Below are positions 6,225 to 23,282 of a stretch of 45,828 nt of DNA, one piece after another. Numbering within the stretch: the stretch's first letter is position 1; each line of letters starts with the position of its first letter. The position numbers were made by a program, and so were the translations under genes. The notes under the pieces are model-generated. The model made no database searches. It saw only the letters and a program-made list of their open reading frames with translations, and had not been told where the DNA came from. Origin of the DNA: Candidatus Magasanikiibacteriota bacterium (lineage in GTDB: Bacteria; Patescibacteriota; Patescibacteriia; Magasanikbacterales; UBA922); NCBI GenBank assembly GCA_043825135.1, contig JBDRSF010000010.1, forward strand, positions 1 through 45,828, in the 5' to 3' direction.

Positions 6225-6250
6225 TTATTCCTTAATCCTTAATCCTTATT
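6225..6250. repeat. 7-bp tandem array (TCCTTAA-like)
   Basis: ttattccttaatccttaatccttatt at the stop codon of the upstream gene; reverse complement resembles the TAAGGAA array at 30521. Confidence 0.6.
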
Positions 6251-13200: not shown

Positions 13201-13929
13201 GTAGGGGCGGGTCTGGACCCGCCATTTGCCAGTATAAAAATTCAAAAATTATTACGATCTCGCCACCATTTGGCGGGATTTTTATTTATATAATTTTGAA
13301 TGGCAAAAAATGATTTTTCATCACGAATTATGTGGTCATAAAATGATCGTTGCCATTTGAAATTTTCAAATCCATTGTGATGGATATATTTGGATGATGT
13401 GGTTTTTAATGCGCCGATTAATTCGGATAATGGTTTGATTTTTATTGCATCGTTTGCCGTAGGGGCGGGTTGCGACCCGCCCTCATTTGCAAATGATACG
13501 TTTGGATATGATTTATTTATTGGTTGCGCGATGGGGACAGGTCGCGACCTGTCCGTACACGATCCGTCAATATGCGACCCGCCCGTGTATGGTTTAATGT
13601 GTGATGAATCAATTTGTATTATCCCATGCACATGGTTCGGCATTACAACAAAATCGTGTAATACAATATACGGATATTGTCCGGCCAGCCATTGCCATTG
13701 TTCCCAGACAATTCGTCCCAATTTATTTATGCACATTATTTCATTGTGAATTCCACCGAAATAATTTATTCGTTCACGGGTATAAAATGTCACAAAATAT
13801 AAACCATCCTGCGAATAATCATATCCCAATAATCGATTCCGTTTACGGTCGTGTAGGGTTTGTTTGATGATTTTCATAAAAAATAGGGCGGGTGGTATAA
13901 AAAAAGGGCGGGTCCAGACCCGCCCCTAC
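13201..13929. mobile_element. REP-flanked Y1 transposase locus (RAYT/REPtron-like)
   Basis: Perfect 23-bp inverted GTAG-headed palindromes GTAGGGGCGGGTCTGGACCCGCC at 13201-13223 and 13907-13929; further REP copies inside the gene. Confidence 0.85.
13242..13877 (-). CDS. REP-associated tyrosine transposase (IS200/Y1 HUH family)
   Basis: RL.GYDYSQ.G.YFVT, MPNHVHGI (HUH), WQRSFYDHIIR, YINKNP catalytic Tyr. Confidence 0.92.
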   Translation of the reverse strand: MKIIKQTLHDRKRNRLLGYDYSQDGLYFVTFYTRERINYFGGIHNEIMCINKLGRIVWEQWQWLAGQYPYIVLHDFVVMPNHVHGIIQIDSSHIKPYTGGSHIDGSCTDRSRPVPIAQPINKSYPNVSFANEGGSQPAPTANDAIKIKPLSELIGALKTTSSKYIHHNGFENFKWQRSFYDHIIRDEKSFFAIQNYINKNPAKWWRDRNNF

Positions 13930-14441: not shown

Positions 14442-15320
14442 TTATTTTAGTTTTTTCATTTTCTTGCTTTGCAGATGCTTTACATTTTTTGAAGAAAGAA
14501 CGTTTTTTCCTGTCTTTTGTTCAATATCTTTTCTGGCTTTTCCAGCGGTATCACCACCTTTTTGGGCAATTGCTTTACTTTCAGAAAAAGTTTTTGGTTT
14601 TTTCTCCTTAGAAATTTCGGTCGTTGTTGCCTCTGCTAACATATTTAAAATCAATTCGAGATTTGTCATATTATCTCTCAAATTTTGCTTTCTTAAGCCT
14701 TTGAAAGTCTTGTATTGTTTTACTGATTTTCCAGTCCATGCTTTGGTAATTTCATCTGTCAAAATGGCAAATTCTAAACCTTCTTTTACACCTCTTTCTT
14801 GCCATTCATCTGTTAAATCTTTTCTTACCTCAATCGTTTTTAGTCTTTGATTGATCCAATCTTTGGAATAGCCTTTTTTGAGATATGTTCGCATAGCTCT
14901 GTCAAAGGCAAGTTCTGGATCTTCAGTTTCTTCTATCCGTTCGTAACCAACTTTGGCTAACCAGAGTTTTATTGGTTCTGCTTTTGGGGAGGGGACAGAT
15001 TGGATGAGACGTAATAATTGTTCTGTACTGGCAACGTCTGTTAGATATTTTTTTCCATCTGATGACAACAATTTGAGTTGGTTACAATTTGTAACCAACT
15101 GACTCCCTTCTTCTTTTAATCGATGTTTTAGTACCTTCCAATAGTTATTTGGGTTATTACTTTCAGTCAAAATTGCAATCATATCAACAATGGAAAAAAA
15201 CCATTCTTCTTTGTCTTCGTCCCATTGACGACGAACTTCTTGCTGGTGGAAGAGTACAATGGAATTATGCCCCAGGGCACTCTCTCTTCCTTCGGAATTC
15301 ACCTTGTTTTTTTTAGCCAT
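14442..15320 (-). CDS. Bro-N domain (phage antirepressor-like) protein
   Basis: VRRQWD...WFFSIVD...YWKVLKHRL..EG, RLIQSVPSPKAEP, NLRDNMT.LEL. Confidence 0.82.
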   Translation of the reverse strand: MAKKNKVNSEGRESALGHNSIVLFHQQEVRRQWDEDKEEWFFSIVDMIAILTESNNPNNYWKVLKHRLKEEGSQLVTNCNQLKLLSSDGKKYLTDVASTEQLLRLIQSVPSPKAEPIKLWLAKVGYERIEETEDPELAFDRAMRTYLKKGYSKDWINQRLKTIEVRKDLTDEWQERGVKEGLEFAILTDEITKAWTGKSVKQYKTFKGLRKQNLRDNMTNLELILNMLAEATTTEISKEKKPKTFSESKAIAQKGGDTAGKARKDIEQKTGKNVLSSKNVKHLQSKKMKKLK

Positions 15321-15353
15321 AAATATTTATAGTATAGTCTAAAATATTTTTTG

Positions 15354-15385
15354 TTACGTAGCAAGTTACGTAATTAATTACGTAA
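15354..15385. repeat. Triple TTACGTA(A) palindromic repeat
   Basis: ttacgtagcaagttacgtaattaattacgtaa between the htpX stop and the Bro-N start. Confidence 0.55.
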
Positions 15386-15416
15386 TACATCTGAGTTTAT
15401 CTTTAAATCTTTTGGT

Positions 15417-16313
15417 CTAAGCCATGTTCCTAAGTTTGTTTATTCGTTCCTCAATAGGTGGGTGTGTAGAAAACAACTTATTCATACCCTTGCCTTTCAA
15501 AGGATTGGAAATAAACAAATGGGCCGTGGCAGTTGAGGCGGTTTGAAGTGGTTGATTTGACTTAGATATTTTTTCCAAAGCTCTGGCTAGCCCTTCTGGA
15601 TAACGAGTGAGAAGTGAGCCAGAAGCGTCAGCCAGATATTCACGCTTGCGAGAGATGGCGAGTTTGATTAGCTCGGCAATAACGGGGGAGAGGATTAGTA
15701 AAACTAAACCAACCACCATTATGATTGTGCCGAGTTGTCCACCACCTTTATCACTAGAGCTTTTTCTACCACCACCCATACCGAATAATCTAGCACGAAA
15801 AAACCAACTAGAAAGCAAGGCAATCGTTCCAACCAAAACAACAACAATGGTCATCAGACGAATGTCATAGTTTTTAATATGTGATAATTCATGAGCAATC
15901 ACGCCTTCAAGTTCTTCATTTTCTAATGCAGAAATAATTCCCGTTGTTAGTGCAATTGATGCATGTTCTGGATCACGGCCAGTCGCAAAGGCGTTCATGG
16001 CCGGAGAATCAATAATATAAACCTTTGGTGTAGGTGTGCCGGCAGTGATGCAGAGATTTTCTACCATTCTGTACACATACGGATTATCTTCTTTAACAAT
16101 GGCTTTGGCACCAGTTGAAGCTAGTGCAATTTTATCACCTTTGAAATAACTAGTCAGTGACATGACTAGTGATAATGTAATCGCGCCAATTAGATAGCCA
16201 TATCCATAGCCCATGTAAACACCAACAAAATAGCCTATTGCTATGATGAAGGCGATGAAGATGGCGACGAGGAGTAGAGTTTTGCGTTTATTTGAGTCAA
16301 TTTGATTATACAT
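15417..16313 (-). CDS. htpX: M48 zinc metalloprotease HtpX
   Basis: NAFATG, HELSH (HExxH), SRKREYLAD, STHPPIEERI. Confidence 0.95.
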   Translation of the reverse strand: MYNQIDSNKRKTLLLVAIFIAFIIAIGYFVGVYMGYGYGYLIGAITLSLVMSLTSYFKGDKIALASTGAKAIVKEDNPYVYRMVENLCITAGTPTPKVYIIDSPAMNAFATGRDPEHASIALTTGIISALENEELEGVIAHELSHIKNYDIRLMTIVVVLVGTIALLSSWFFRARLFGMGGGRKSSSDKGGGQLGTIIMVVGLVLLILSPVIAELIKLAISRKREYLADASGSLLTRYPEGLARALEKISKSNQPLQTASTATAHLFISNPLKGKGMNKLFSTHPPIEERINKLRNMA

Positions 16314-16354
16314 ACGAACTACGAAATGCTTACGAAATTACGAACTACGAACTT
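16313..16354. repeat. Left inverted arm (TACGAAC-type 7-mer array) of GxxExxY cassette 1
   Basis: tacgaactacgaaatgcttacgaaattacgaactacgaactt; 16328-16354 is the exact reverse complement of 16773-16799. Confidence 0.9.
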
Positions 16355-16763
16355 ATTCGTTCACCACTCTTTTTATAATTGCCCCTCCGTGTGTGAAACA
16401 TACTAAAAGTCCAAGTTTTAAATCAAGAGTTTCTAAATATTGTTTAGTTTGATCTATTATTTTTCTTGAAATAAATTCACCTCTTTTGATCTCAATTACG
16501 ATCTTATCTTCAACTAAGAAATCTAGAAAATATTTTCCAACTATTTCATTATCAAATTTTAGAGGCACATAGGCTTGTTCTATGAATTTAATTCCACTTT
16601 TTTCAAATCCGATCTTTATGGCTTTTTGATAATATTTTTCTTGGTGACCACCACCAAGTTGTTTGGCAACCTCAAAAAATATACCATTAAGTTTAAAACT
16701 TAATTCAGGATAAAACAAGTCTTTTCTTCTTATTATGTATTTTTTCCCTCCTTTATTGTCCAT
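16353..16763 (-). CDS. GxxExxY protein (PD-(D/E)xK nuclease fold)
   Basis: GHQEKYY motif; LDFLVEDKIVIEIK. Confidence 0.92.
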   Translation of the reverse strand: MDNKGGKKYIIRRKDLFYPELSFKLNGIFFEVAKQLGGGHQEKYYQKAIKIGFEKSGIKFIEQAYVPLKFDNEIVGKYFLDFLVEDKIVIEIKRGEFISRKIIDQTKQYLETLDLKLGLLVCFTHGGAIIKRVVNE

Positions 16764-16772
16764 AAATATTAC

Positions 16773-16815
16773 AAGTTCGTAGTTCGTAATTTCGTAAGCT
16801 GTTCGTCAGTTCGTA
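16773..16815. repeat. Right inverted arm of GxxExxY cassette 1
   Basis: aagttcgtagttcgtaatttcgtaagctgttcgtcagttcgta. Confidence 0.9.
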
Positions 16816-16820
16816 AATAA

Positions 16821-17384
16821 TTATAATTTAACCTCGACCACTTCTTTCTCACTCTCATCAGCTTCAAAAAATTCATATTTCTTGAAATGCAACATTCCAG
16901 CTACAGTGTTGTTTGGGAAGGTTTCGATCTTGGTGTTGAAATCACGAACCATGCCATTGTAGAATCTGCGAGAGGCTTGAATCTTGTTTTCAGTATCAGA
17001 TAATTCGTCCATTAATTGCATGACACTTTGGTTAGCTTTTAGATCTGGATAAGCTTCTACTGCGATTTGTAATTTACCAAGCATGCCACCAAGTAGGTTT
17101 TCTGCATTGGCGAGTTCTCCAGTATTACCAGATTCTTGAGCAGTCATGGCCTGTGATCTGGCTTTGGTAATATTTTCTAATAGCTCTCTTTCGTGGGTCA
17201 TATAGCCACGAACACTGTTAATTAAGTTTGGAATTAGATCATGACGTCTTTTTAGTTGGACATCAATGTCACTCCAGGCTTCTTTGGTGCGGTTATTTAG
17301 CTTGACCAGGGCATTATAGACGCCGATGATCCAGAGGACTACGAGGACGACTATGGCGAGAATTGCGACGTACATTCCTGACAT
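16821..17384 (-). CDS. lemA: LemA family protein
   Basis: N-terminal TM, AWSDIDVQLKRRHDLIPNL, EAYPDLKAN, ENKIQASRRFYN. Confidence 0.95.
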   Translation of the reverse strand: MSGMYVAILAIVVLVVLWIIGVYNALVKLNNRTKEAWSDIDVQLKRRHDLIPNLINSVRGYMTHERELLENITKARSQAMTAQESGNTGELANAENLLGGMLGKLQIAVEAYPDLKANQSVMQLMDELSDTENKIQASRRFYNGMVRDFNTKIETFPNNTVAGMLHFKKYEFFEADESEKEVVEVKL

Positions 17385-17549
17385 ATTATTATAGATTAAA
17401 CCAGCTAGAAACGTGTTAGTATCTGACTGGTATTTTTAATTATCGTTGTTTTTTAGTTATATAGGCAATATAACACCCCTTGATTAAAAGTATTGTTTAG
17501 TTTATACTATTACTATTATTCTACCTTAATTTATATATACTAGTCAACT

Positions 17550-18728
17550 ATGTTTACAGTAATTATCTTTATCCTAATTCTCGGTCTTCTTGTATTAGTT
17601 CATGAGTTTGGTCATTTTATCACTGCTCGTAAGTCAGGTATGAAAGTTTATGAGTTTGGTTTTGGGTTTCCCCCACGAGCTTTTGGTGTTTACAAAGATC
17701 CTGAGACTGGTAAATTTGTTTGGGTTTGGGGCAAAGGCAAGAGTAGTTTGAAAAAGACAGTATCTGGTACAGAAAACAAAGAAGATTTTGGTTTTCCTTC
17801 AACGATTTATTCTTTTAATTGGTTACCTTTGGGTGGGTTTGTACGCATTAAGGGTGAAAATGGCGAGGATGCCAATGAACCAGATAGTTTTGGTTTTCAA
17901 AAACCTTGGAAGAGAATTATAGTATTGGTATCTGGTGTTACCATGAATATTGTATTAGCCGGAATCTTGCTTTCTTTTGGATTTATGGTTGGTTTACCAA
18001 CTGACATGTCAGCTGGGGCTGACGATAGTGCAATTATTGTTCAGGAGCCACAAGTTTTGGTGCAAATGGTGGATAAAAATTCCCCAGCCGAGACAGCAGG
18101 ATTGAAATTAGGTGATGCCATTCTCCGCATTGATGATACTGATATAATAGGTTCAAATCAACTGGTTTCTTATGTTCGGGAAAATAATGATAGAGAATTA
18201 AATTTATTAGTATTAAGAAGTGGTGAGGAAATGAATTTTGCGATAACCCCAGAGATTGTAAAAAGTGGTGAAGCTAATGCTAGATTAGGAGTGATGTTAG
18301 CAGATGCCGCTGTCATTCGTTATCCTTGGTATCTAGCTTTTGGTAAAGGTTTTGTGGCAGCATTTTGGGGCTTTATAAATATTTTTGTTACCTTTTATTA
18401 TCTAATCAAATATTTGATTTTAGGACAAGGTTTGGTCTATGATGTGTCTGGTCCAGTAGGAATTGCCAAAATAGTGGGTGATAGTGCTAGATTAGGTATT
18501 AGCTATTTAATAAATGTGACAGCTATGTTGTCGTTATCTTTGGCAGCTATTAATATTTTACCAATTCCAGCTCTTGACGGTGGTAGAATTTTATTTATTC
18601 TAATAGAAAAAATTATCCGCCGACCAGTACCAATGAAATACGAACAAATTGCCCACACTCTCGGTTTTGTTTTGCTGATGCTTTTGATTGTGGTTGTAAC
18701 TGCTCGCGATGTGATTGGATTATTTTAA
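17550..18728 (+). CDS. rseP: RIP metalloprotease RseP (M50, PDZ)
   Basis: HEFGH, PDZ domain, NILPIPALDGG. Confidence 0.94.
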   Translation: MFTVIIFILILGLLVLVHEFGHFITARKSGMKVYEFGFGFPPRAFGVYKDPETGKFVWVWGKGKSSLKKTVSGTENKEDFGFPSTIYSFNWLPLGGFVRIKGENGEDANEPDSFGFQKPWKRIIVLVSGVTMNIVLAGILLSFGFMVGLPTDMSAGADDSAIIVQEPQVLVQMVDKNSPAETAGLKLGDAILRIDDTDIIGSNQLVSYVRENNDRELNLLVLRSGEEMNFAITPEIVKSGEANARLGVMLADAAVIRYPWYLAFGKGFVAAFWGFINIFVTFYYLIKYLILGQGLVYDVSGPVGIAKIVGDSARLGISYLINVTAMLSLSLAAINILPIPALDGGRILFILIEKIIRRPVPMKYEQIAHTLGFVLLMLLIVVVTARDVIGLF

Positions 18729-18748
18729 GTTTTTTTATTAAGATTTTT

Positions 18749-19162
18749 ATGTCTAATGAGCCAACAGATATAAAAGAAGGATTACTTCCTAAAAAAGTAA
18801 GAGAGCTTGTGGATAAATTTCTCCCCGATGAATTTTTTGATGAAGTAGAGGGTTTTGATACGAGTTTTAAGACAGGAAATACAATTAGAAAAGAAGAAGT
18901 AAGAAGGATGTTGGTAGATATGTTTTCTGATGAAAAAGAAAGAATGGATGATGCTAATGGTAAATATATGGAATTGCGAGTTGCTTTTCCTCATATTGCA
19001 GGAAGACCAAATCCAATTATCGCTCGTTTAGGATGGATATGTAAAGAGCTATCTAAGAGAGATTGGAAAAGATCATATGGAGAATCTATTGAGGGTATTA
19101 ATGTGGGAAAAGATAATGAAGTGGCTTATGCTGATTTTGGAAATAAAAATGGAAAAAAATAG
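18749..19162 (+). CDS. Hypothetical protein
   Basis: 137-aa ORF filling the rseP-pheS gap on the same strand. Confidence 0.65.
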   Translation: MSNEPTDIKEGLLPKKVRELVDKFLPDEFFDEVEGFDTSFKTGNTIRKEEVRRMLVDMFSDEKERMDDANGKYMELRVAFPHIAGRPNPIIARLGWICKELSKRDWKRSYGESIEGINVGKDNEVAYADFGNKNGKK

Positions 19163-19177
19163 ATAAAATTATTTTAT

Positions 19178-20209
19178 ATGAAAGCACAATTAGAAAAATT
19201 AAAAAAAGAATTTATAAAAGGCCTTAATGAAATCAAGGATGTTTTGCAGTTGGAAGAGTTGGAACAAAAGTTTTTTTCCCGCAAATCCGGTGAGATGACC
19301 GAGGCCATGAAGAGCTTGAAAAAACTATCAGGCGATGCCAAAAAAGAATTTGGTAAACTTGCTAATGAGGTAAAGAGAGAGTTAGAAGATTTGTATAGTA
19401 AAAAGAAGCAGGAAATTGAGAAAAATAAAATGGGAGATTTGGCTGATACAGAATGGATTGATGTTACTCAACCAAAGTTGCCTAAAGCAGAAAAAGGTCA
19501 TCTACATCCAGAGACTTTAGCACTAAGGGAGATGGAAGAGGTGGCAAGGAATATGGGATTTTTGGTTGAAGATGGACCAGAATTGGATAGTGACTATTTT
19601 TGTTTTGAAGCTTTAAATATTCCAGATAGTCATCCAGCTAGAGACTCGCAAGATACTTTTTATATCAAAGATCATCCGGAGTTATGCATGCGCCCTCATG
19701 TTTCTAATATGCAAGTTAGGTCGCTTCAAAAGTATGGCGCACCACTTAGAATTGCTTATCCTGGTCGTACATTTAGAAATGAAGCAACAGATGCTTCTCA
19801 TGATCACACTTTTTATCAGTTTGAAGCCTTGGTGGTGGATAAAGATATAAATGTTGGAAATTTGATTGGAATTATAAAAGAATTATTAGGTGGTTTGTAC
19901 AAGAAAGAGGTTGAGGTTCGTTTGCGTCCTGGATATTTTCCTTTTGTAGAACCCGGATTTGAGTTGGATATGAAATGTCTTATTTGCGAAGGTCAGGGCT
20001 GTGGTGCTTGTGGTCATGCTGGTTGGGTAGAGACTTTAGGCTGTGGTTTGATGCATCCGCGTGTTTTAGAAGCTGCTGGGCTCGATCCAAAAGAGTGGAG
20101 TGGATTGGCATTTGGTATGGGTCTTACTAGATTAGTTATGCAAAAATATAAAGTTGAAGATATACGGCATCTAAATAGTGGGGATTTGCGGTTTTTAAAG
20201 CAATTTTAA
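19178..20209 (+). CDS. pheS: Phenylalanyl-tRNA synthetase alpha subunit
   Basis: HPARDSQDTFY, FRNEATDASH, YFPFVEP, GLAFGMG, DLRFLKQF. Confidence 0.97.
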   Translation: MKAQLEKLKKEFIKGLNEIKDVLQLEELEQKFFSRKSGEMTEAMKSLKKLSGDAKKEFGKLANEVKRELEDLYSKKKQEIEKNKMGDLADTEWIDVTQPKLPKAEKGHLHPETLALREMEEVARNMGFLVEDGPELDSDYFCFEALNIPDSHPARDSQDTFYIKDHPELCMRPHVSNMQVRSLQKYGAPLRIAYPGRTFRNEATDASHDHTFYQFEALVVDKDINVGNLIGIIKELLGGLYKKEVEVRLRPGYFPFVEPGFELDMKCLICEGQGCGACGHAGWVETLGCGLMHPRVLEAAGLDPKEWSGLAFGMGLTRLVMQKYKVEDIRHLNSGDLRFLKQF

Positions 20210-20212
20210 AAA

Positions 20213-20278
20213 CACAGATTTGTACATATTTTTCACAGATTTGACATATCACAGATTATACAAATTTAACAGATTTGT
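20213..20278. repeat. Left inverted arm (ACAGATT-type array, 7 units) of GxxExxY cassette 2
   Basis: cacagatttgtacatatttttcacagatttgacatatcacagattatacaaatttaacagatttgt. Confidence 0.85.
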
Positions 20279-20281
20279 TTT

Positions 20282-20695
20282 ATGGAGGAAAATTTTTTAG
20301 AGAAAGAATTGAGTTATAATTTAGTAGGATGTTTTTATAAAGTTAGAAATTTGTATGGGGTGGGACATAGAGAGAAGTTTTATGATGATGTTTTGGGAGA
20401 AATTTTGGAATATGAGAAATTGTCCTTTGTAGATAAACCAAGAATTCCACTGTATTCTGTATTAAGTGGTAGACAGGTTGGTTATAATATTCCGGATAAG
20501 TTGGTAGAAAATAAAATAATTGTGGAAATAAAAGCAAAGCCATTTTTTACAAAAGATGATATCAATCAAGCTACGGAGTATTTAAAGATAACCGAGTGTG
20601 AAATATTATATTTAGTTAATTTTAGCGAGCCAGAGTTTAGACCAAGGAGATTCATCTATACAAATAATCGCAAACCATTTTTAAATCTTAAATAA
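20282..20695 (+). CDS. GxxExxY protein (PD-(D/E)xK nuclease fold)
   Basis: GHREKFY motif; PDKLVENKIIVEIK; LYLVNF. Confidence 0.9.
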   Translation: MEENFLEKELSYNLVGCFYKVRNLYGVGHREKFYDDVLGEILEYEKLSFVDKPRIPLYSVLSGRQVGYNIPDKLVENKIIVEIKAKPFFTKDDINQATEYLKITECEILYLVNFSEPEFRPRRFIYTNNRKPFLNLK

Positions 20696-20754
20696 TTTGT
20701 CAGATCTGTAATATTTGTGATTTGTAAAATCTGTAAAGATCTGTCAAATCTGTT
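20694..20754. repeat. Right inverted arm (AATCTGT-type array, 7 units) of GxxExxY cassette 2
   Basis: aatttgtcagatctgtaatatttgtgatttgtaaaatctgtaaagatctgtcaaatctgtt; its reverse complement aligns unit-for-unit with the left arm. Confidence 0.85.
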
Positions 20755-20762
20755 ACTAATAT

Positions 20763-23282
20763 ATGTTATTAAGTTACAATTGGCTAAAAAATTACGTTGA
20801 TTTACCAGACTCTCTCTCACCAGAAGAGTTGGCTTTGAAATTGACAATGAGTACTGTTGAAGTTGAGGGTGTAGAAAAACAAGGCAAAGATCTTGAAAAT
20901 ATTGTAGTAGGACTTGTTAAGAAAGCTGAGAAACATCCTGATGCGGACAAATTGCAAGTTTGTACTGTTTACGATGGTGTGGAAGATTATCAAGTTGTTT
21001 GTGGTGGTTCAAATGTGATAGAAGGAATGAAAGTGGCTTTTGGAAAAATTGGTGCCAAAGTAAAGTGGCATGGTGAAGGTGAGCTTATTGAGCTTACTAA
21101 AGCAAAAATTCGTGGAGTAGAATCATTTGGTATGATTTGTGCATCTACTGAGATTGGTTTGGGTGAGATGTTTCCAGTGAAAGATGGGAAAGAAATCTTA
21201 GATTTGAGCTCCCACCACCCCGGCCTAAAGGCCACCCCTCCTCGGGCAGGAGGGGACAATATTGGTATGCCTTTGGCAGAGTTTCTAGGCTTAAATGATG
21301 TCATAATCGATATTGACAATAAATCCATGACGCATCGTCCAGATTTGTGGGGGCATTATGGTATGAGTAGAGAAGTGGCAGTGCTTTATCATAAAGAATT
21401 GGTGGAATATAATCCACCTTTGATTAAAAAAATAAAGAAAGCTGGAGGGACAGGTCGCGACCTGTCCGTACACGACCTGTCCGTACAAGTGCAAGATACA
21501 AAATTATGTCCGCGATATATGGCAGTAGTGATTGATGGGGTGAAGATCGTGCCGTCGCCAGAGTGGATGCAGAAGAAGTTAATTGCGGTTGGTTTGCGTC
21601 CGATTAATAATATTGTTGATATTACTAATTATATTTTGTTTGATCTTGGTCAGCCACTCCATGCTTTTGATAAATCAGCAATCAGCAATCAGCAATCAGC
21701 AGTCACGATTATTGTTAGGCGAGCCAAAAATGGTGAAGAATTTGTCACTCTAGATGATAAAAGCCACAAATTAACGAATGACGATTTGGTAATTGCTGAC
21801 AGTGAAAAAGCCGTGGCTTTGGCTGGGGTGATAGGTGGTTTAAACAGTGAAGTAAAAGATGATACTATAACTATAGTTTTTGAATCAGCTAATTTTGATG
21901 CACTGAATATCAGACGAACAGCGACTCGTTTGGGAATAAGAACTGATTCATCAGCTCGGTTTGAAAAGAGTTTAGATCCAAATAATTGTGAATTAGCTTT
22001 GAAACGTGCGGTTGAATTGACATTAGAGCTATGCCCAAATGCAAAAGTTGTAAGCAATGTTGTTGATGAAGCCAATTTTAATTTGAATCAAGGGCCAATA
22101 GAATTATCATTAGAATTTTTAAATAAAAAGATTGGTGTTGAATTGGAGAAAAAAGAAGTTGTAAAGATTTTGGAATCGCTTGGGTTTGGCATAAAAGAAA
22201 AGAAAGATGTATTATTGGTTGCTATACCAACTTGGCGTGCGACTAAAGATATTTCTATTCCTGAAGATTTAGTTGAAGAAGTCGCTAGAATTTATGGCTA
22301 TGGCAATATTCCAACAGTCTTACCAACTTTTCCAATTACACCACCAGAGAGAAATGAATTAAAGTTGCTGGAGAGAAAAATCAAAAATATATTAAGCTTG
22401 GAATTTGGTTTTAATGAAGTTTATAATTACTCTTTTATTTCACCAAAGTGGATTGAAATATTAGAACTAGATAAGGAAGATTTTATTGAACTAGATAATC
22501 CAATTGCAAAAGACAGACCATATTTGCGCCGAGGTCTGTGGCCAAATTTGTTAGAAAATGTAGAGAAAAATTTACATGAGTTTGATCAAGTAAAAATATT
22601 TGAAATTGGTCAGGTGTTTGATAAGCTTAACCCTGGTCAAAGAGCAAGTGATAATGGTGATGATTTGTTACCAAGGCAAGATTTGATGTTGGGAATGGTG
22701 TTTGCTGGTAAGGGATTTGATAAGCCGTTTTTTGAATTATCATCGGCTATGTCAGGAATTTTAGACCATTTTAATTGCACTTATGAATTAAAAGCTAAGA
22801 GTGAGATGGATGGAGAATTTATTCATCCGGGTCGTATAGCTGAGATAGTAGTTAATGGAGAAGTAATTGGTGCGGTGGCTGAGATACATCCAATTACATT
22901 AAACAAGATTGGCTTGGACGAGAGCACAGCGGTATTAGAAATTAGTTTACAAAAACTAGTAGAGCAAGTATTAGAAAAAAATAATTATCAAAAACTTTCA
23001 GTCTATCCTTCTGTCGAGCGGGATGTGGCTTTTCTAGTAGACAAAAAAATTTCTAATACAGAAATAATTGAGAAGCTAAAAAATATTGATGGATTAGTGA
23101 GAAATGTTGAATTGTTTGATGTTTATGAAGGTGATAAAGTTGGTGCTGGAAAAAAGAGTATGGCTTATCGTATTACATATCGTAGTGATGATAAGACTTT
23201 GGAGTCGGTTGAGGTTGATAAGGTTCACGATAAACTGGTTAAAATATTGGAGAAAGAATTTAGTGCTGAGGTGAGGAAATAA
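20763..23282 (+). CDS. pheT: Phenylalanyl-tRNA synthetase beta subunit, with three repeat-derived in-frame segments
   Basis: HPDADKL, RGVESFGMIC, NNIVDITNY, EDLVEEVARIYGY, C-terminal anticodon-binding domain (RDVAF...LFDVYEG). Confidence 0.97.
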   Translation: MLLSYNWLKNYVDLPDSLSPEELALKLTMSTVEVEGVEKQGKDLENIVVGLVKKAEKHPDADKLQVCTVYDGVEDYQVVCGGSNVIEGMKVAFGKIGAKVKWHGEGELIELTKAKIRGVESFGMICASTEIGLGEMFPVKDGKEILDLSSHHPGLKATPPRAGGDNIGMPLAEFLGLNDVIIDIDNKSMTHRPDLWGHYGMSREVAVLYHKELVEYNPPLIKKIKKAGGTGRDLSVHDLSVQVQDTKLCPRYMAVVIDGVKIVPSPEWMQKKLIAVGLRPINNIVDITNYILFDLGQPLHAFDKSAISNQQSAVTIIVRRAKNGEEFVTLDDKSHKLTNDDLVIADSEKAVALAGVIGGLNSEVKDDTITIVFESANFDALNIRRTATRLGIRTDSSARFEKSLDPNNCELALKRAVELTLELCPNAKVVSNVVDEANFNLNQGPIELSLEFLNKKIGVELEKKEVVKILESLGFGIKEKKDVLLVAIPTWRATKDISIPEDLVEEVARIYGYGNIPTVLPTFPITPPERNELKLLERKIKNILSLEFGFNEVYNYSFISPKWIEILELDKEDFIELDNPIAKDRPYLRRGLWPNLLENVEKNLHEFDQVKIFEIGQVFDKLNPGQRASDNGDDLLPRQDLMLGMVFAGKGFDKPFFELSSAMSGILDHFNCTYELKAKSEMDGEFIHPGRIAEIVVNGEVIGAVAEIHPITLNKIGLDESTAVLEISLQKLVEQVLEKNNYQKLSVYPSVERDVAFLVDKKISNTEIIEKLKNIDGLVRNVELFDVYEGDKVGAGKKSMAYRITYRSDDKTLESVEVDKVHDKLVKILEKEFSAEVRK

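Follow-up and report, generated by a model that had tools for sequence, protein, structure and literature searches.

How does a gene for a small predicted nuclease come to stand between lemA and htpX, two genes that are commonly adjacent, with an inverted repeat array filling the gap on either side of it? The question is raised by a stretch of 45,828 nucleotides (nt) from a Candidatus Magasanikiibacteriota bacterium (NCBI GenBank assembly GCA_043825135.1, contig JBDRSF010000010.1), which was analysed as a whole and is called the window below. The window is one contig (C10) of a genome (G000) of 1.17 Mb, which is distributed over 77 contigs and has a G+C content of 35.6%. The segment at 16313-16816 is read here, with a probability of about 0.6, as one member, the one that carries a gene, of a family of intergenic palindromes with TACGAA-type 7-mer arms. 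This family would fall into a wide-ranging class of hairpin cassettes, mobile and riding on operons. In this class, a single short open reading frame (ORF) would be framed by inverted short-period arrays, and the cargo would be a GxxExxY, a four-helix-bundle, a DUF559 or a GIY-YIG gene. The cassettes would bring along neither promoter nor transposase nor integrase and would lodge, in sense orientation, in the few bases between co-transcribed genes.

A small selfish element without recognisable transposase or integrase had been proposed for this locus by a first-pass annotation made from the sequence alone. This proposal is supported by four lines of evidence, namely that arms are the rule around genes of this family, that the gene has no stable synteny, that gene-less copies of the arms are dispersed and have empty counterparts in a congener, and that the termini of one clade are conserved across phyla.

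The cassette between lemA and htpX

On the minus strand, the genes follow one another in the order lemA, GxxExxY and htpX, and both gaps are occupied by inverted arrays. The upstream host gene of the operon is lemA (16821-17384, minus), a member of the LemA family (PF04011, E value 8.5e-58). The downstream one is htpX (15417-16313, minus), which encodes an M48 zinc metalloprotease (NF003425, 361 bits versus a cut-off of 355). The cargo gene between them (16353-16763, minus) encodes a minimal PD-(D/E)xK nuclease of 136 amino acids (aa) and matches the GxxExxY models TIGR04256 with 89.5 bits (cut-off 35) and PF13366 with 88.9 bits (cut-off 22).

The arms were delimited by repeat search and RNA folding. 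The lemA-side arm, which is the 5′ arm in the transcript, is an array of TACGAAC and TACGAAA units (16771-16816, minus); the htpX-side arm, the 3′ arm in the transcript, is the inverted array GTTCGTA... (16313-16356, minus). In both arms the units are TACGAA[C/A/T] 7-mers. The repeat search pairs 16321-16354 with 16773-16806 (34 nt, 94% complementary), and a perfect 27-bp core is common to both arms (16328-16354 and 16773-16799). The 13-mer TACGAACTACGAA is present in three copies in the window, every one of them in the arms; the mean in shuffled sequences is 0.66, and three copies are reached in 5 of 100 shuffles. The lemA stop codon is separated from the lemA-side arm by 5 nt (TTATT). At the other side, the inner end of the arm overlaps the cargo stop codon and its outer end is the A of the htpX ATG. 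The inverted repeats in the flanks of the gene have a z score of 23.9. The first-pass annotation had described arms of about 42 nt made of TACGAAC-like 7-mers with a perfect 27-bp core, the one starting 5 nt past the lemA stop and the other ending on the htpX start codon. Every detail that was checked proved correct.

The annotated ATG of the cargo gene is not preceded by a Shine-Dalgarno (SD) site. A GGAGGG-like string is found at about 16735-16745, within the first eight codons, and it is conserved in the GxxExxY genes of the lineage occupying this site (L010, L019, L021, L176, L177). It could be an SD site for a later start or simply encode a conserved G-G peptide.

The arms as a dispersed repeat

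The htpX-side arm recurs elsewhere in the genome, with 100% identity over 42 nt at C19:4726-4767, 97% over 36 nt at C52:12335-12370 and 92% over 39 nt at C21:5540-5578. At each of these places it is part of a hairpin with TACGAA-type arms that contains no gene (C19:4694-4767, C21:5505-5578 and C52:12297-12370). In the three hairpins the arms are only 9-15 nt apart, and all three are located at gene junctions. The arms are 92-100% identical among the four copies in the genome, as is expected of conserved terminal inverted repeats (TIRs) in transposons and miniature inverted-repeat transposable elements (MITEs).

Comparison with relatives indicates turnover. A genome of the same genus (G001) lacks exactly the hairpin segments of C19 (112 nt) and C21 (115 nt), and there the flanks are contiguous or 2 nt apart. 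Another genome (G006) holds about 20 places with TACGAA-type hairpins on 17 contigs and one gene-bearing copy (60% identity), which has the same arms and is located on a different contig from lemA and htpX. In a third genome (G002), a TACGAA-armed copy (61% identity) stands between gmd and fcl, both genes having been read by eye from their translations. As far as sequence comparison can tell, the arms are a dispersed and recently active repeat, represented by one gene-bearing copy and a swarm of gene-less palindromes that are gained or lost between congeners.

Short-period arrays without a gene are present across the whole genome, with 77 arrays of TGATA[AG], 35 of AAAGTC, 22 of TAAGGA, 15 of GTAATT, 9 of ACAGAT and 8 of ACGAA. 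Often they form local hairpins where two genes meet; in the window, such arrays are found near 6229, 11759, 30521 and 37657. The TGATA[AG], AAAGTC, TAAGGA and GTAATT units are the same as in the arms of the four-helix-bundle cassettes on C52, C70, C46 and C6.

Array-framed cassettes in the genome, in the phylum and in other phyla

Each of the five GxxExxY genes in the genome stands between inverted short-period arms. The five copies have five different units (CACGGAT, GCAGAT, TACGAAC, CCGAAT and ACAGAT), and for this reason a single terminal repeat common to all copies, as in a recently spread transposon, was rejected. The 817 ORFs of 90-260 aa in the genome were ranked by the inverted repeats of their flanks (median score 16, 99th percentile 55.8). 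The top 30 included four GxxExxY genes (the fifth fell outside the length filter), all six TIGR02436 genes, two DUF559 genes, one GIY-YIG gene and four IS200-like Y1_Tnp genes, of which two were confirmed by Pfam and two were labelled by eye. TIGR02436 is the family of four-helix bundles to which the "23S rRNA intervening-sequence protein" (S23p) belongs. In the 14 non-transposase cassettes of the genome, z ranges from 5.1 to 29.6 versus shuffled flanks.

Arms are also the rule outside this genome, as the first-pass annotation had led one to expect. Elsewhere in the phylum, 28 GxxExxY loci from as many genomes were scored, a 29th having too little flank, and 16 of them have flank inverted repeats with z of at least 5. 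The same holds for 56/78 loci in the cross-phylum clade of the paralogue on contig C57 (80 loci in all, two with too little flank) and for four-helix-bundle loci (21/29, from 29 genomes). The members of the C57 clade include Magasanikbacteria, Bacteroidota, Ignavibacteriota, Geomonas, a Pseudanabaena, Chloroflexota, Nitrospinia and Gammaproteobacteria; Geomonas paludis, Spirosoma fluviale DSM 29961, Belliella marina and Aquiflexum lacus are named carriers. One paralogue has its best relatives in metagenome-assembled genomes of Candidatus Magasanikbacteria, which makes the source organism a probable member of this group within the candidate phyla radiation (Patescibacteria). Among 250 control ORFs of 150-600 aa from G000, only five (2%) reach the same value, which argues against arms being ordinary host terminators around unrelated genes. 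Within the phylum the GxxExxY family is patchy and occurs in 39 of 301 genomes.

With these figures, a stable host gene flanked by chance repeats, with no element at all, can be regarded as already refuted. The intact reading frame is the only point that speaks for it. Against it stand the z of 23.9 at the locus compared with the 2% control rate, the empty sites in relatives described below and the identical arms on other contigs.

The window itself contains a second cassette, which occupies the whole gap between pheS (19178-20209) and pheT (20763-23282). This cassette extends over 20210-20762 (plus) and consists of a GxxExxY gene (20282-20695, plus; TIGR04256 match) between inverted ACAGAT-type arrays, which were read in the flanks (20210-20281 and 20696-20762). 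Its flank inverted-repeat score is 55 (z 13.6). A junction downstream of leuS, a gene read by eye, is split by the same architecture.

Arm units vary with the protein subfamily. CGAA[ACT], ACAAAT or ACGGA units go with proteins that share at least 45% identity with that of the window, and C-N-GAT units with the clade of the C57 paralogue. In this clade, the proteins are 61-83% identical across phyla and the termini are kept as ATAG(A/C)AC(A/G)CNGAT(G/A)ACAC(G/A)GAT... and ...ATCCGTGTCATCCGTGT(T/G)CTAT, sharply bounded and without direct repeats alongside. The conserved termini span Magasanikbacteria, Bacteroidota, Ignavibacteriota, Geomonas and cyanobacteria. Because the arm sequence itself is conserved in the clade, beyond what pairing demands, it seems that something recognises the arms. 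Copies at lemA-htpX in different genera have different units, yet 39/39 and 34/34 of their arm bases are paired. Full pairing despite drift of the unit points to strong selection for pairing or to arm-to-arm homogenisation. On this evidence, arms and gene are passed on together and diverge together.

These results bear on whether the arms are a part of the element or only its target. Small selfish genes might insert into the loops of pre-existing host hairpins, such as stabilisers or terminators resembling repetitive extragenic palindromic (REP) sequences, and the arms would then mark the landing site. This would account for a genome littered with gene-less arrays, from the 77 of TGATA[AG] down to the eight of ACGAA, for gene-less hairpins being more numerous than gene-bearing ones and for unrelated cargo families sharing one architecture. 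Moreover, the ACAGAT unit that flanks a GxxExxY gene here flanks an S23p gene in Coxiella, according to a published account (PMC4990558). A landing site is nevertheless an unlikely explanation: the arm unit tracks the protein subfamily, and one clade keeps arms and gene across phyla whose genomes otherwise have no such repeats in common. In addition, the gene-less hairpins are gained and lost between congeners and hence are not fixed host signals.

State of the lemA-htpX junction in relatives

The lemA locus was examined in 29 relatives, and in 28 of them htpX is located downstream, in accordance with the common adjacency of the two genes assumed in the first-pass annotation. Empty alleles do exist, as the gap measures only 1-7 nt in 8/28 relatives. 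In 12 of the 28 it is filled by other non-coding sequence of 35-162 nt, in five by other genes and in three by a GxxExxY gene with inverted arms, one of these genes being a pseudogene. The gene is therefore not stably syntenic, the site being empty or differently occupied in most of the 28 relatives.

The arm units of the three gene-bearing relatives are TACAAAT, TTCGAAT and TACGAAC. In the relative with TACGAAC units (L021, genome G017), the GxxExxY gene contains two in-frame stops and the arms are cut down to 20/21 paired. They are the most decayed arms among the copies at this site (score 37 versus 67-78), and in this single case gene and arms may be decaying together.

One of the 12 non-coding gaps (G006) contains a 41-nt solo array of TACGAAA units. 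Two genomes of the same genus as G000 (lemA 82-84% identical) have no GxxExxY gene at the junction and carry two different gene-less hairpins instead. The hairpin of one congener has ATAGAACACTGAT... termini of the cross-phylum type, and that of the other has GGGGAGGG-type arms similar to the ones in a DUF559 cassette. Elsewhere in the order, unrelated genes are inserted at the same place in members of other families (L034 in G029, L011, L028, L029 and L031), and one of the gene inserts is a toxin-antitoxin-like pair, by reading of its ORFs. Taken from these sequences, the junction seems to be a general hot spot for insertions.

The GxxExxY copies at the site are 47-63% identical to the window protein, compared with 26-30% for its in-genome paralogues, so that the site copies form one lineage. 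In a tree built from LemA and HtpX, the four carriers are scattered in an 18-genome clade among empty sites. Such a pattern, with related copies at the exact same junction in four genera and with catalytic residues intact, would suit a site-specific homing endonuclease gene. Its protein would cut the empty lemA-htpX junction, repair would copy the cassette in, and the arms would be a by-product. We give this explanation a low probability. Members of the same subfamily are found at other junctions in G002 and G006, and each paralogue in G000 occupies a different site. Homing would also leave the arms and the dispersed gene-less hairpins unexplained, and the two-protein tree is modestly supported, 7 of its 26 inner branches being unresolved.

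Transcription, orientation and RNA folding

Seventy GxxExxY loci had enough flank for their orientation to be counted. In 51 of them the two neighbouring genes point the same way as the cargo, and in three both are antisense to it. For four-helix-bundle genes, the corresponding figures are 22/29 and 1/29. Since a palindrome as such has no direction, this bias implies that the cargo needs host transcription. A scan of the window yielded 10 promoter-like sites, about as many as in shuffles (9.1), the best one on the minus strand being located upstream of lemA. The same scan placed no promoter-like site in either gap and only one weak match (9/12) inside the cassette, and no terminator-like site was detected on the minus strand of the window.

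The RNA fold of 16300-16830 (minus) has a predicted energy of -132.7 kcal/mol, versus -89.7 ± 5.9 kcal/mol in shuffles (z -7.3), and none of 100 shuffles was as good. The predicted terminal stem of about 42 pairs joins 16771-16815 with 16313-16356, closes the cassette and takes in the htpX start codon. A gene for RNase III is present in the genome.

No Rfam match was obtained in 15000-21500. A split ribosome-binding site was also considered, in which the stem would bring an SD-like GAGGT in the 3′ end of lemA to the htpX ATG. Most relatives have no SD site before htpX at any gap length, which leaves the idea neither supported nor weakened.

The GxxExxY protein

The motif G39-H-Q-E42-K-Y-Y45 can be read in the translation. 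Six residues (E42, D81, E91, K93, Y109 and F123) are invariant in 74 family sequences, and D81, E91 and K93 are the catalytic ones. The AlphaFold2 model (pLDDT 91) is a minimal PD-(D/E)xK core, and Foldseek matched it to Cas4 SSO0001, lambda exonuclease, MGME1 and the Holliday-junction resolvase Hjc, the last at matching size. Model and matches agree with the fold that had been assigned to the GxxExxY family at the outset. As the active site is kept, the protein probably still cuts nucleic acid. A profile search of the PDB gave weak matches only, to T7 endonuclease I (E value 0.07-0.6), which serve as a lead and are not used as evidence. A role in defence finds no support, the PADLOC matches being marginal only (E value 0.001-0.004) and PHROGs giving none.

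In PMC3424549, PF13366 is listed with the function "Unknown" and with "multiple transfers". The arms of the cassette provide a concrete candidate substrate for this family of "unknown function".

A possible mechanism and its difficulties

On the preferred reading as a mobile hairpin cassette, expression of the cargo would come from transcription that starts at the lemA promoter and reads through. Once transcribed, the arms would pair into a stem of about 42 bp, and RNase III would cut this stem as it does in rRNA intervening sequences (IVSs). Cutting would free the message of the cargo, those of lemA and htpX would still be usable, and the cost of the insertion would therefore be low. The nuclease would serve the element by acting on the arms as DNA, in the form of duplex repeats, hairpin or cruciform, either for copying to new junctions or for keeping the arms identical. 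Of these three steps, the action of the nuclease on its own arms is the weakest. Cutting of the RNA stem by RNase III is plausible by analogy with the rRNA sequences. We favour a role of the arms in spread or maintenance at the DNA level, the RNA stem being the reason why the insertion is tolerated.

Several points weigh against this reading. Target-site duplication was not seen at conserved termini (38 loci) or at two occupied/empty pairs; the C19 hairpin has a possible imperfect repeat of 7-8 nt, a single case. No excised or inverted form was seen in the contigs, the only material consulted, of four sequencing runs. The contigs of one run (X1) cover the whole stretch and break in the arms; a 323-nt contig of another (X4), which joins both arms with 10 letters between them, was rejected as an excision form and equals a gene-less hairpin. 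The site copies, being a single lineage, could go back to one old insertion followed by many losses, instead of repeated insertion. Arm mismatches show no excess of G:U over A:C (103 versus 120 in 54 loci, 21 versus 30 in 13 cassettes), so that no selection for pairing is visible on the sense RNA. Conservation of the unit sequences likewise speaks against a reading at the RNA level only. Symmetry at the DNA level or arm-to-arm conversion seems to fit the arms as well or better. The expression of the cassette, the stem and its cleavage are all steps that we infer. The nuclease cannot be the general engine of the class, because the four-helix-bundle cassettes, whose cargo is not a nuclease, share the architecture. 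The 23S rRNA gene of G000 has no large insertion (3018 nt; model 2925 positions), and 23S-like sequence was not found near any of 113 GxxExxY loci.

The stem could also be a domesticated RNA device, that is, a host-selected RNase III or stability stem that uncouples or tunes lemA and htpX, with the nuclease as an ordinary gene in its loop. The strength of the predicted stem, which includes the htpX start codon, the presence of RNase III in the genome and the sense orientation are all compatible with this possibility. It is improbable all the same, considering that a junction of 1-7 nt suffices in 8/28 relatives and that both congeners have other elements at the site. The same architecture is seen at pheS-pheT, downstream of leuS and at gmd-fcl in G002 (the last two by eye). 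The lack of a G:U over A:C signature and the patchiness of the family (39/301 genomes) speak against it as well.

The first-pass annotation had supposed that, in mRNA, the arms form a long stem that loops out the cargo and brings the lemA stop and the htpX start together again. This supposition is no more than plausible. A long stem is predicted by the fold, RNase III is encoded and the sense bias fits dependence on read-through; a wobble signature on the RNA strand is lacking. Cutting by RNase III would separate the lemA and htpX messages and not rejoin them.

Relation to known systems

The element resembles the ORF-bearing rRNA IVSs and the REPIN-RAYT pair and is a member of neither. The ORF-bearing 23S IVSs of Leptospira and Coxiella share with it a size of about 0.4-0.5 kb, one small ORF and a long stem made by terminal inverted repeats. 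The 23S IVS of Coxiella is reported to contain an S23p ORF, to end in a stem of 28 bp, to have GACAGAT heptamers in tandem, their number varying, and to be cut out by RNase III (PMC4990558). The same account mentions no transposase, reports a sporadic distribution and a dependence on host transcription, all of which are shared by the cassette, and states that the "functionality and origin remain unclear" (PMC4990558). The comparison with rRNA IVSs made in the first-pass annotation is apt in view of the stem, the heptamers and the small ORF of the Coxiella sequence, as given in the same source. The ACAGAT arms of the second cassette in the window have the unit of these GACAGAT heptamers.

The likeness extends to the six S23p-family (TIGR02436) genes of G000, which carry the array-armed architecture, and to the terminal inverted repeats that close the element at lemA-htpX, with the stem of about 42 bp and the fold z of -7.3 given above. 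Unlike the IVSs, the cassette of the window is located between protein-coding genes and not in an rRNA helix, its cargo is a PD-(D/E)xK protein and not S23p, and its excision by RNase III would be assumed from the analogy.

The REP/REPIN-RAYT systems, reportedly described by Nunvar in 2010 and by Bertels and Rainey in 2011, offer the second comparison. As in these systems, a gene is flanked by inverted palindromic repeats that also occur without it, in G000 as one gene-bearing copy with 3-4 hairpins and in G006 as one with about 20. Unlike in these systems, the gene of the cassettes encodes a PD-(D/E)xK nuclease or a four-helix bundle and not a Y1 HUH transposase, and the cargo has no Y1_Tnp match. 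The arms are A/T-rich arrays with a period of 7-8 nt, in contrast to the GC-rich REPs. The Y1_Tnp genes of G000 have their own, different GC-rich palindromes. One ORF related to IS200-like Y1 transposases is found in the window at 13242-13877 (minus; PF01797, E value 3.9e-5), with palindromes GTAGGGGCGGGTCTGGACCCGCC at 13201-13223 and 13907-13929. The segment 13201-13929 has the look of a REP/RAYT pair and differs in kind from the heptamer-array cassettes.

The Correia/NEMIS elements of Neisseria are palindromic intergenic MITEs in transcription units. Their RNA hairpins are RNase III substrates, and they have no ORF and are flanked by TA duplications. The present family is also palindromic, intergenic and located in transcription units, with gene-less copies at gene junctions. 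It differs from Correia elements in that one copy here carries a nuclease gene and in that no duplication was seen. With TIR transposons and MITEs in general the cassette shares terminal inverted repeats; it is set apart from them by the lack of a direct repeat outside the arms at the loci and pairs examined above and by a 136-aa nuclease as its sole ORF. Free-standing homing endonuclease genes are likewise small nuclease genes between conserved genes, with a patchy distribution and empty alleles in relatives; they differ from this cassette in having no long inverted repeat arrays and in spawning no gene-less palindromes.

In a literature search conducted mostly without subscription journals, supplements and curators' family texts, no description of this architecture was found for GxxExxY genes or for four-helix-bundle genes outside rRNA. 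An IVS-like architecture around both kinds of gene at ordinary operon junctions would turn a curiosity of rRNA into a general and testable class of mobile elements. Such elements would also be a systematic source of operon interruption and of contig breaks in the small genomes of the candidate phyla radiation (CPR).

A wider view can be put forward tentatively, and we regard it as rather doubtful in its full extent. The ORF-bearing rRNA IVSs might be the tip of a large class of cassettes without promoter or transposase, which occupy stop/start junctions of operons across many phyla and carry interchangeable cargos. They would spread by a new kind of mechanism, in which the periodic 7-8-nt arms are read as a DNA hairpin or cruciform and one arm is re-copied from the other. 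Re-copying of arms at the DNA level would explain why the arms are paired and yet drift, why target duplications are absent and why no wobble signature is seen in the RNA.

Other observations

A 292-aa ORF at 14442-15320 (minus) lies directly 3′ of htpX and was not placed by eye. The GxxExxY copy L004 (C18:25617-25997) has no stop codon of its own, and its frame continues across the CCGAAT arm and joins the following gene, whose N-terminus is prepilin-like (GFTLIE). The open frame comprises 345 aa; it may result from a lost stop, a fusion or an assembly issue. A further family of dispersed palindromes, AAAGGGATCCCTC...GGGATGACA, was noticed in the genome, with no gene linked to it. The 96-aa GIY-YIG gene at C54:11085-11375 stands between GTGTCATTGCGAG...GCAATCCCA palindromes of a kind seen on at least seven contigs.

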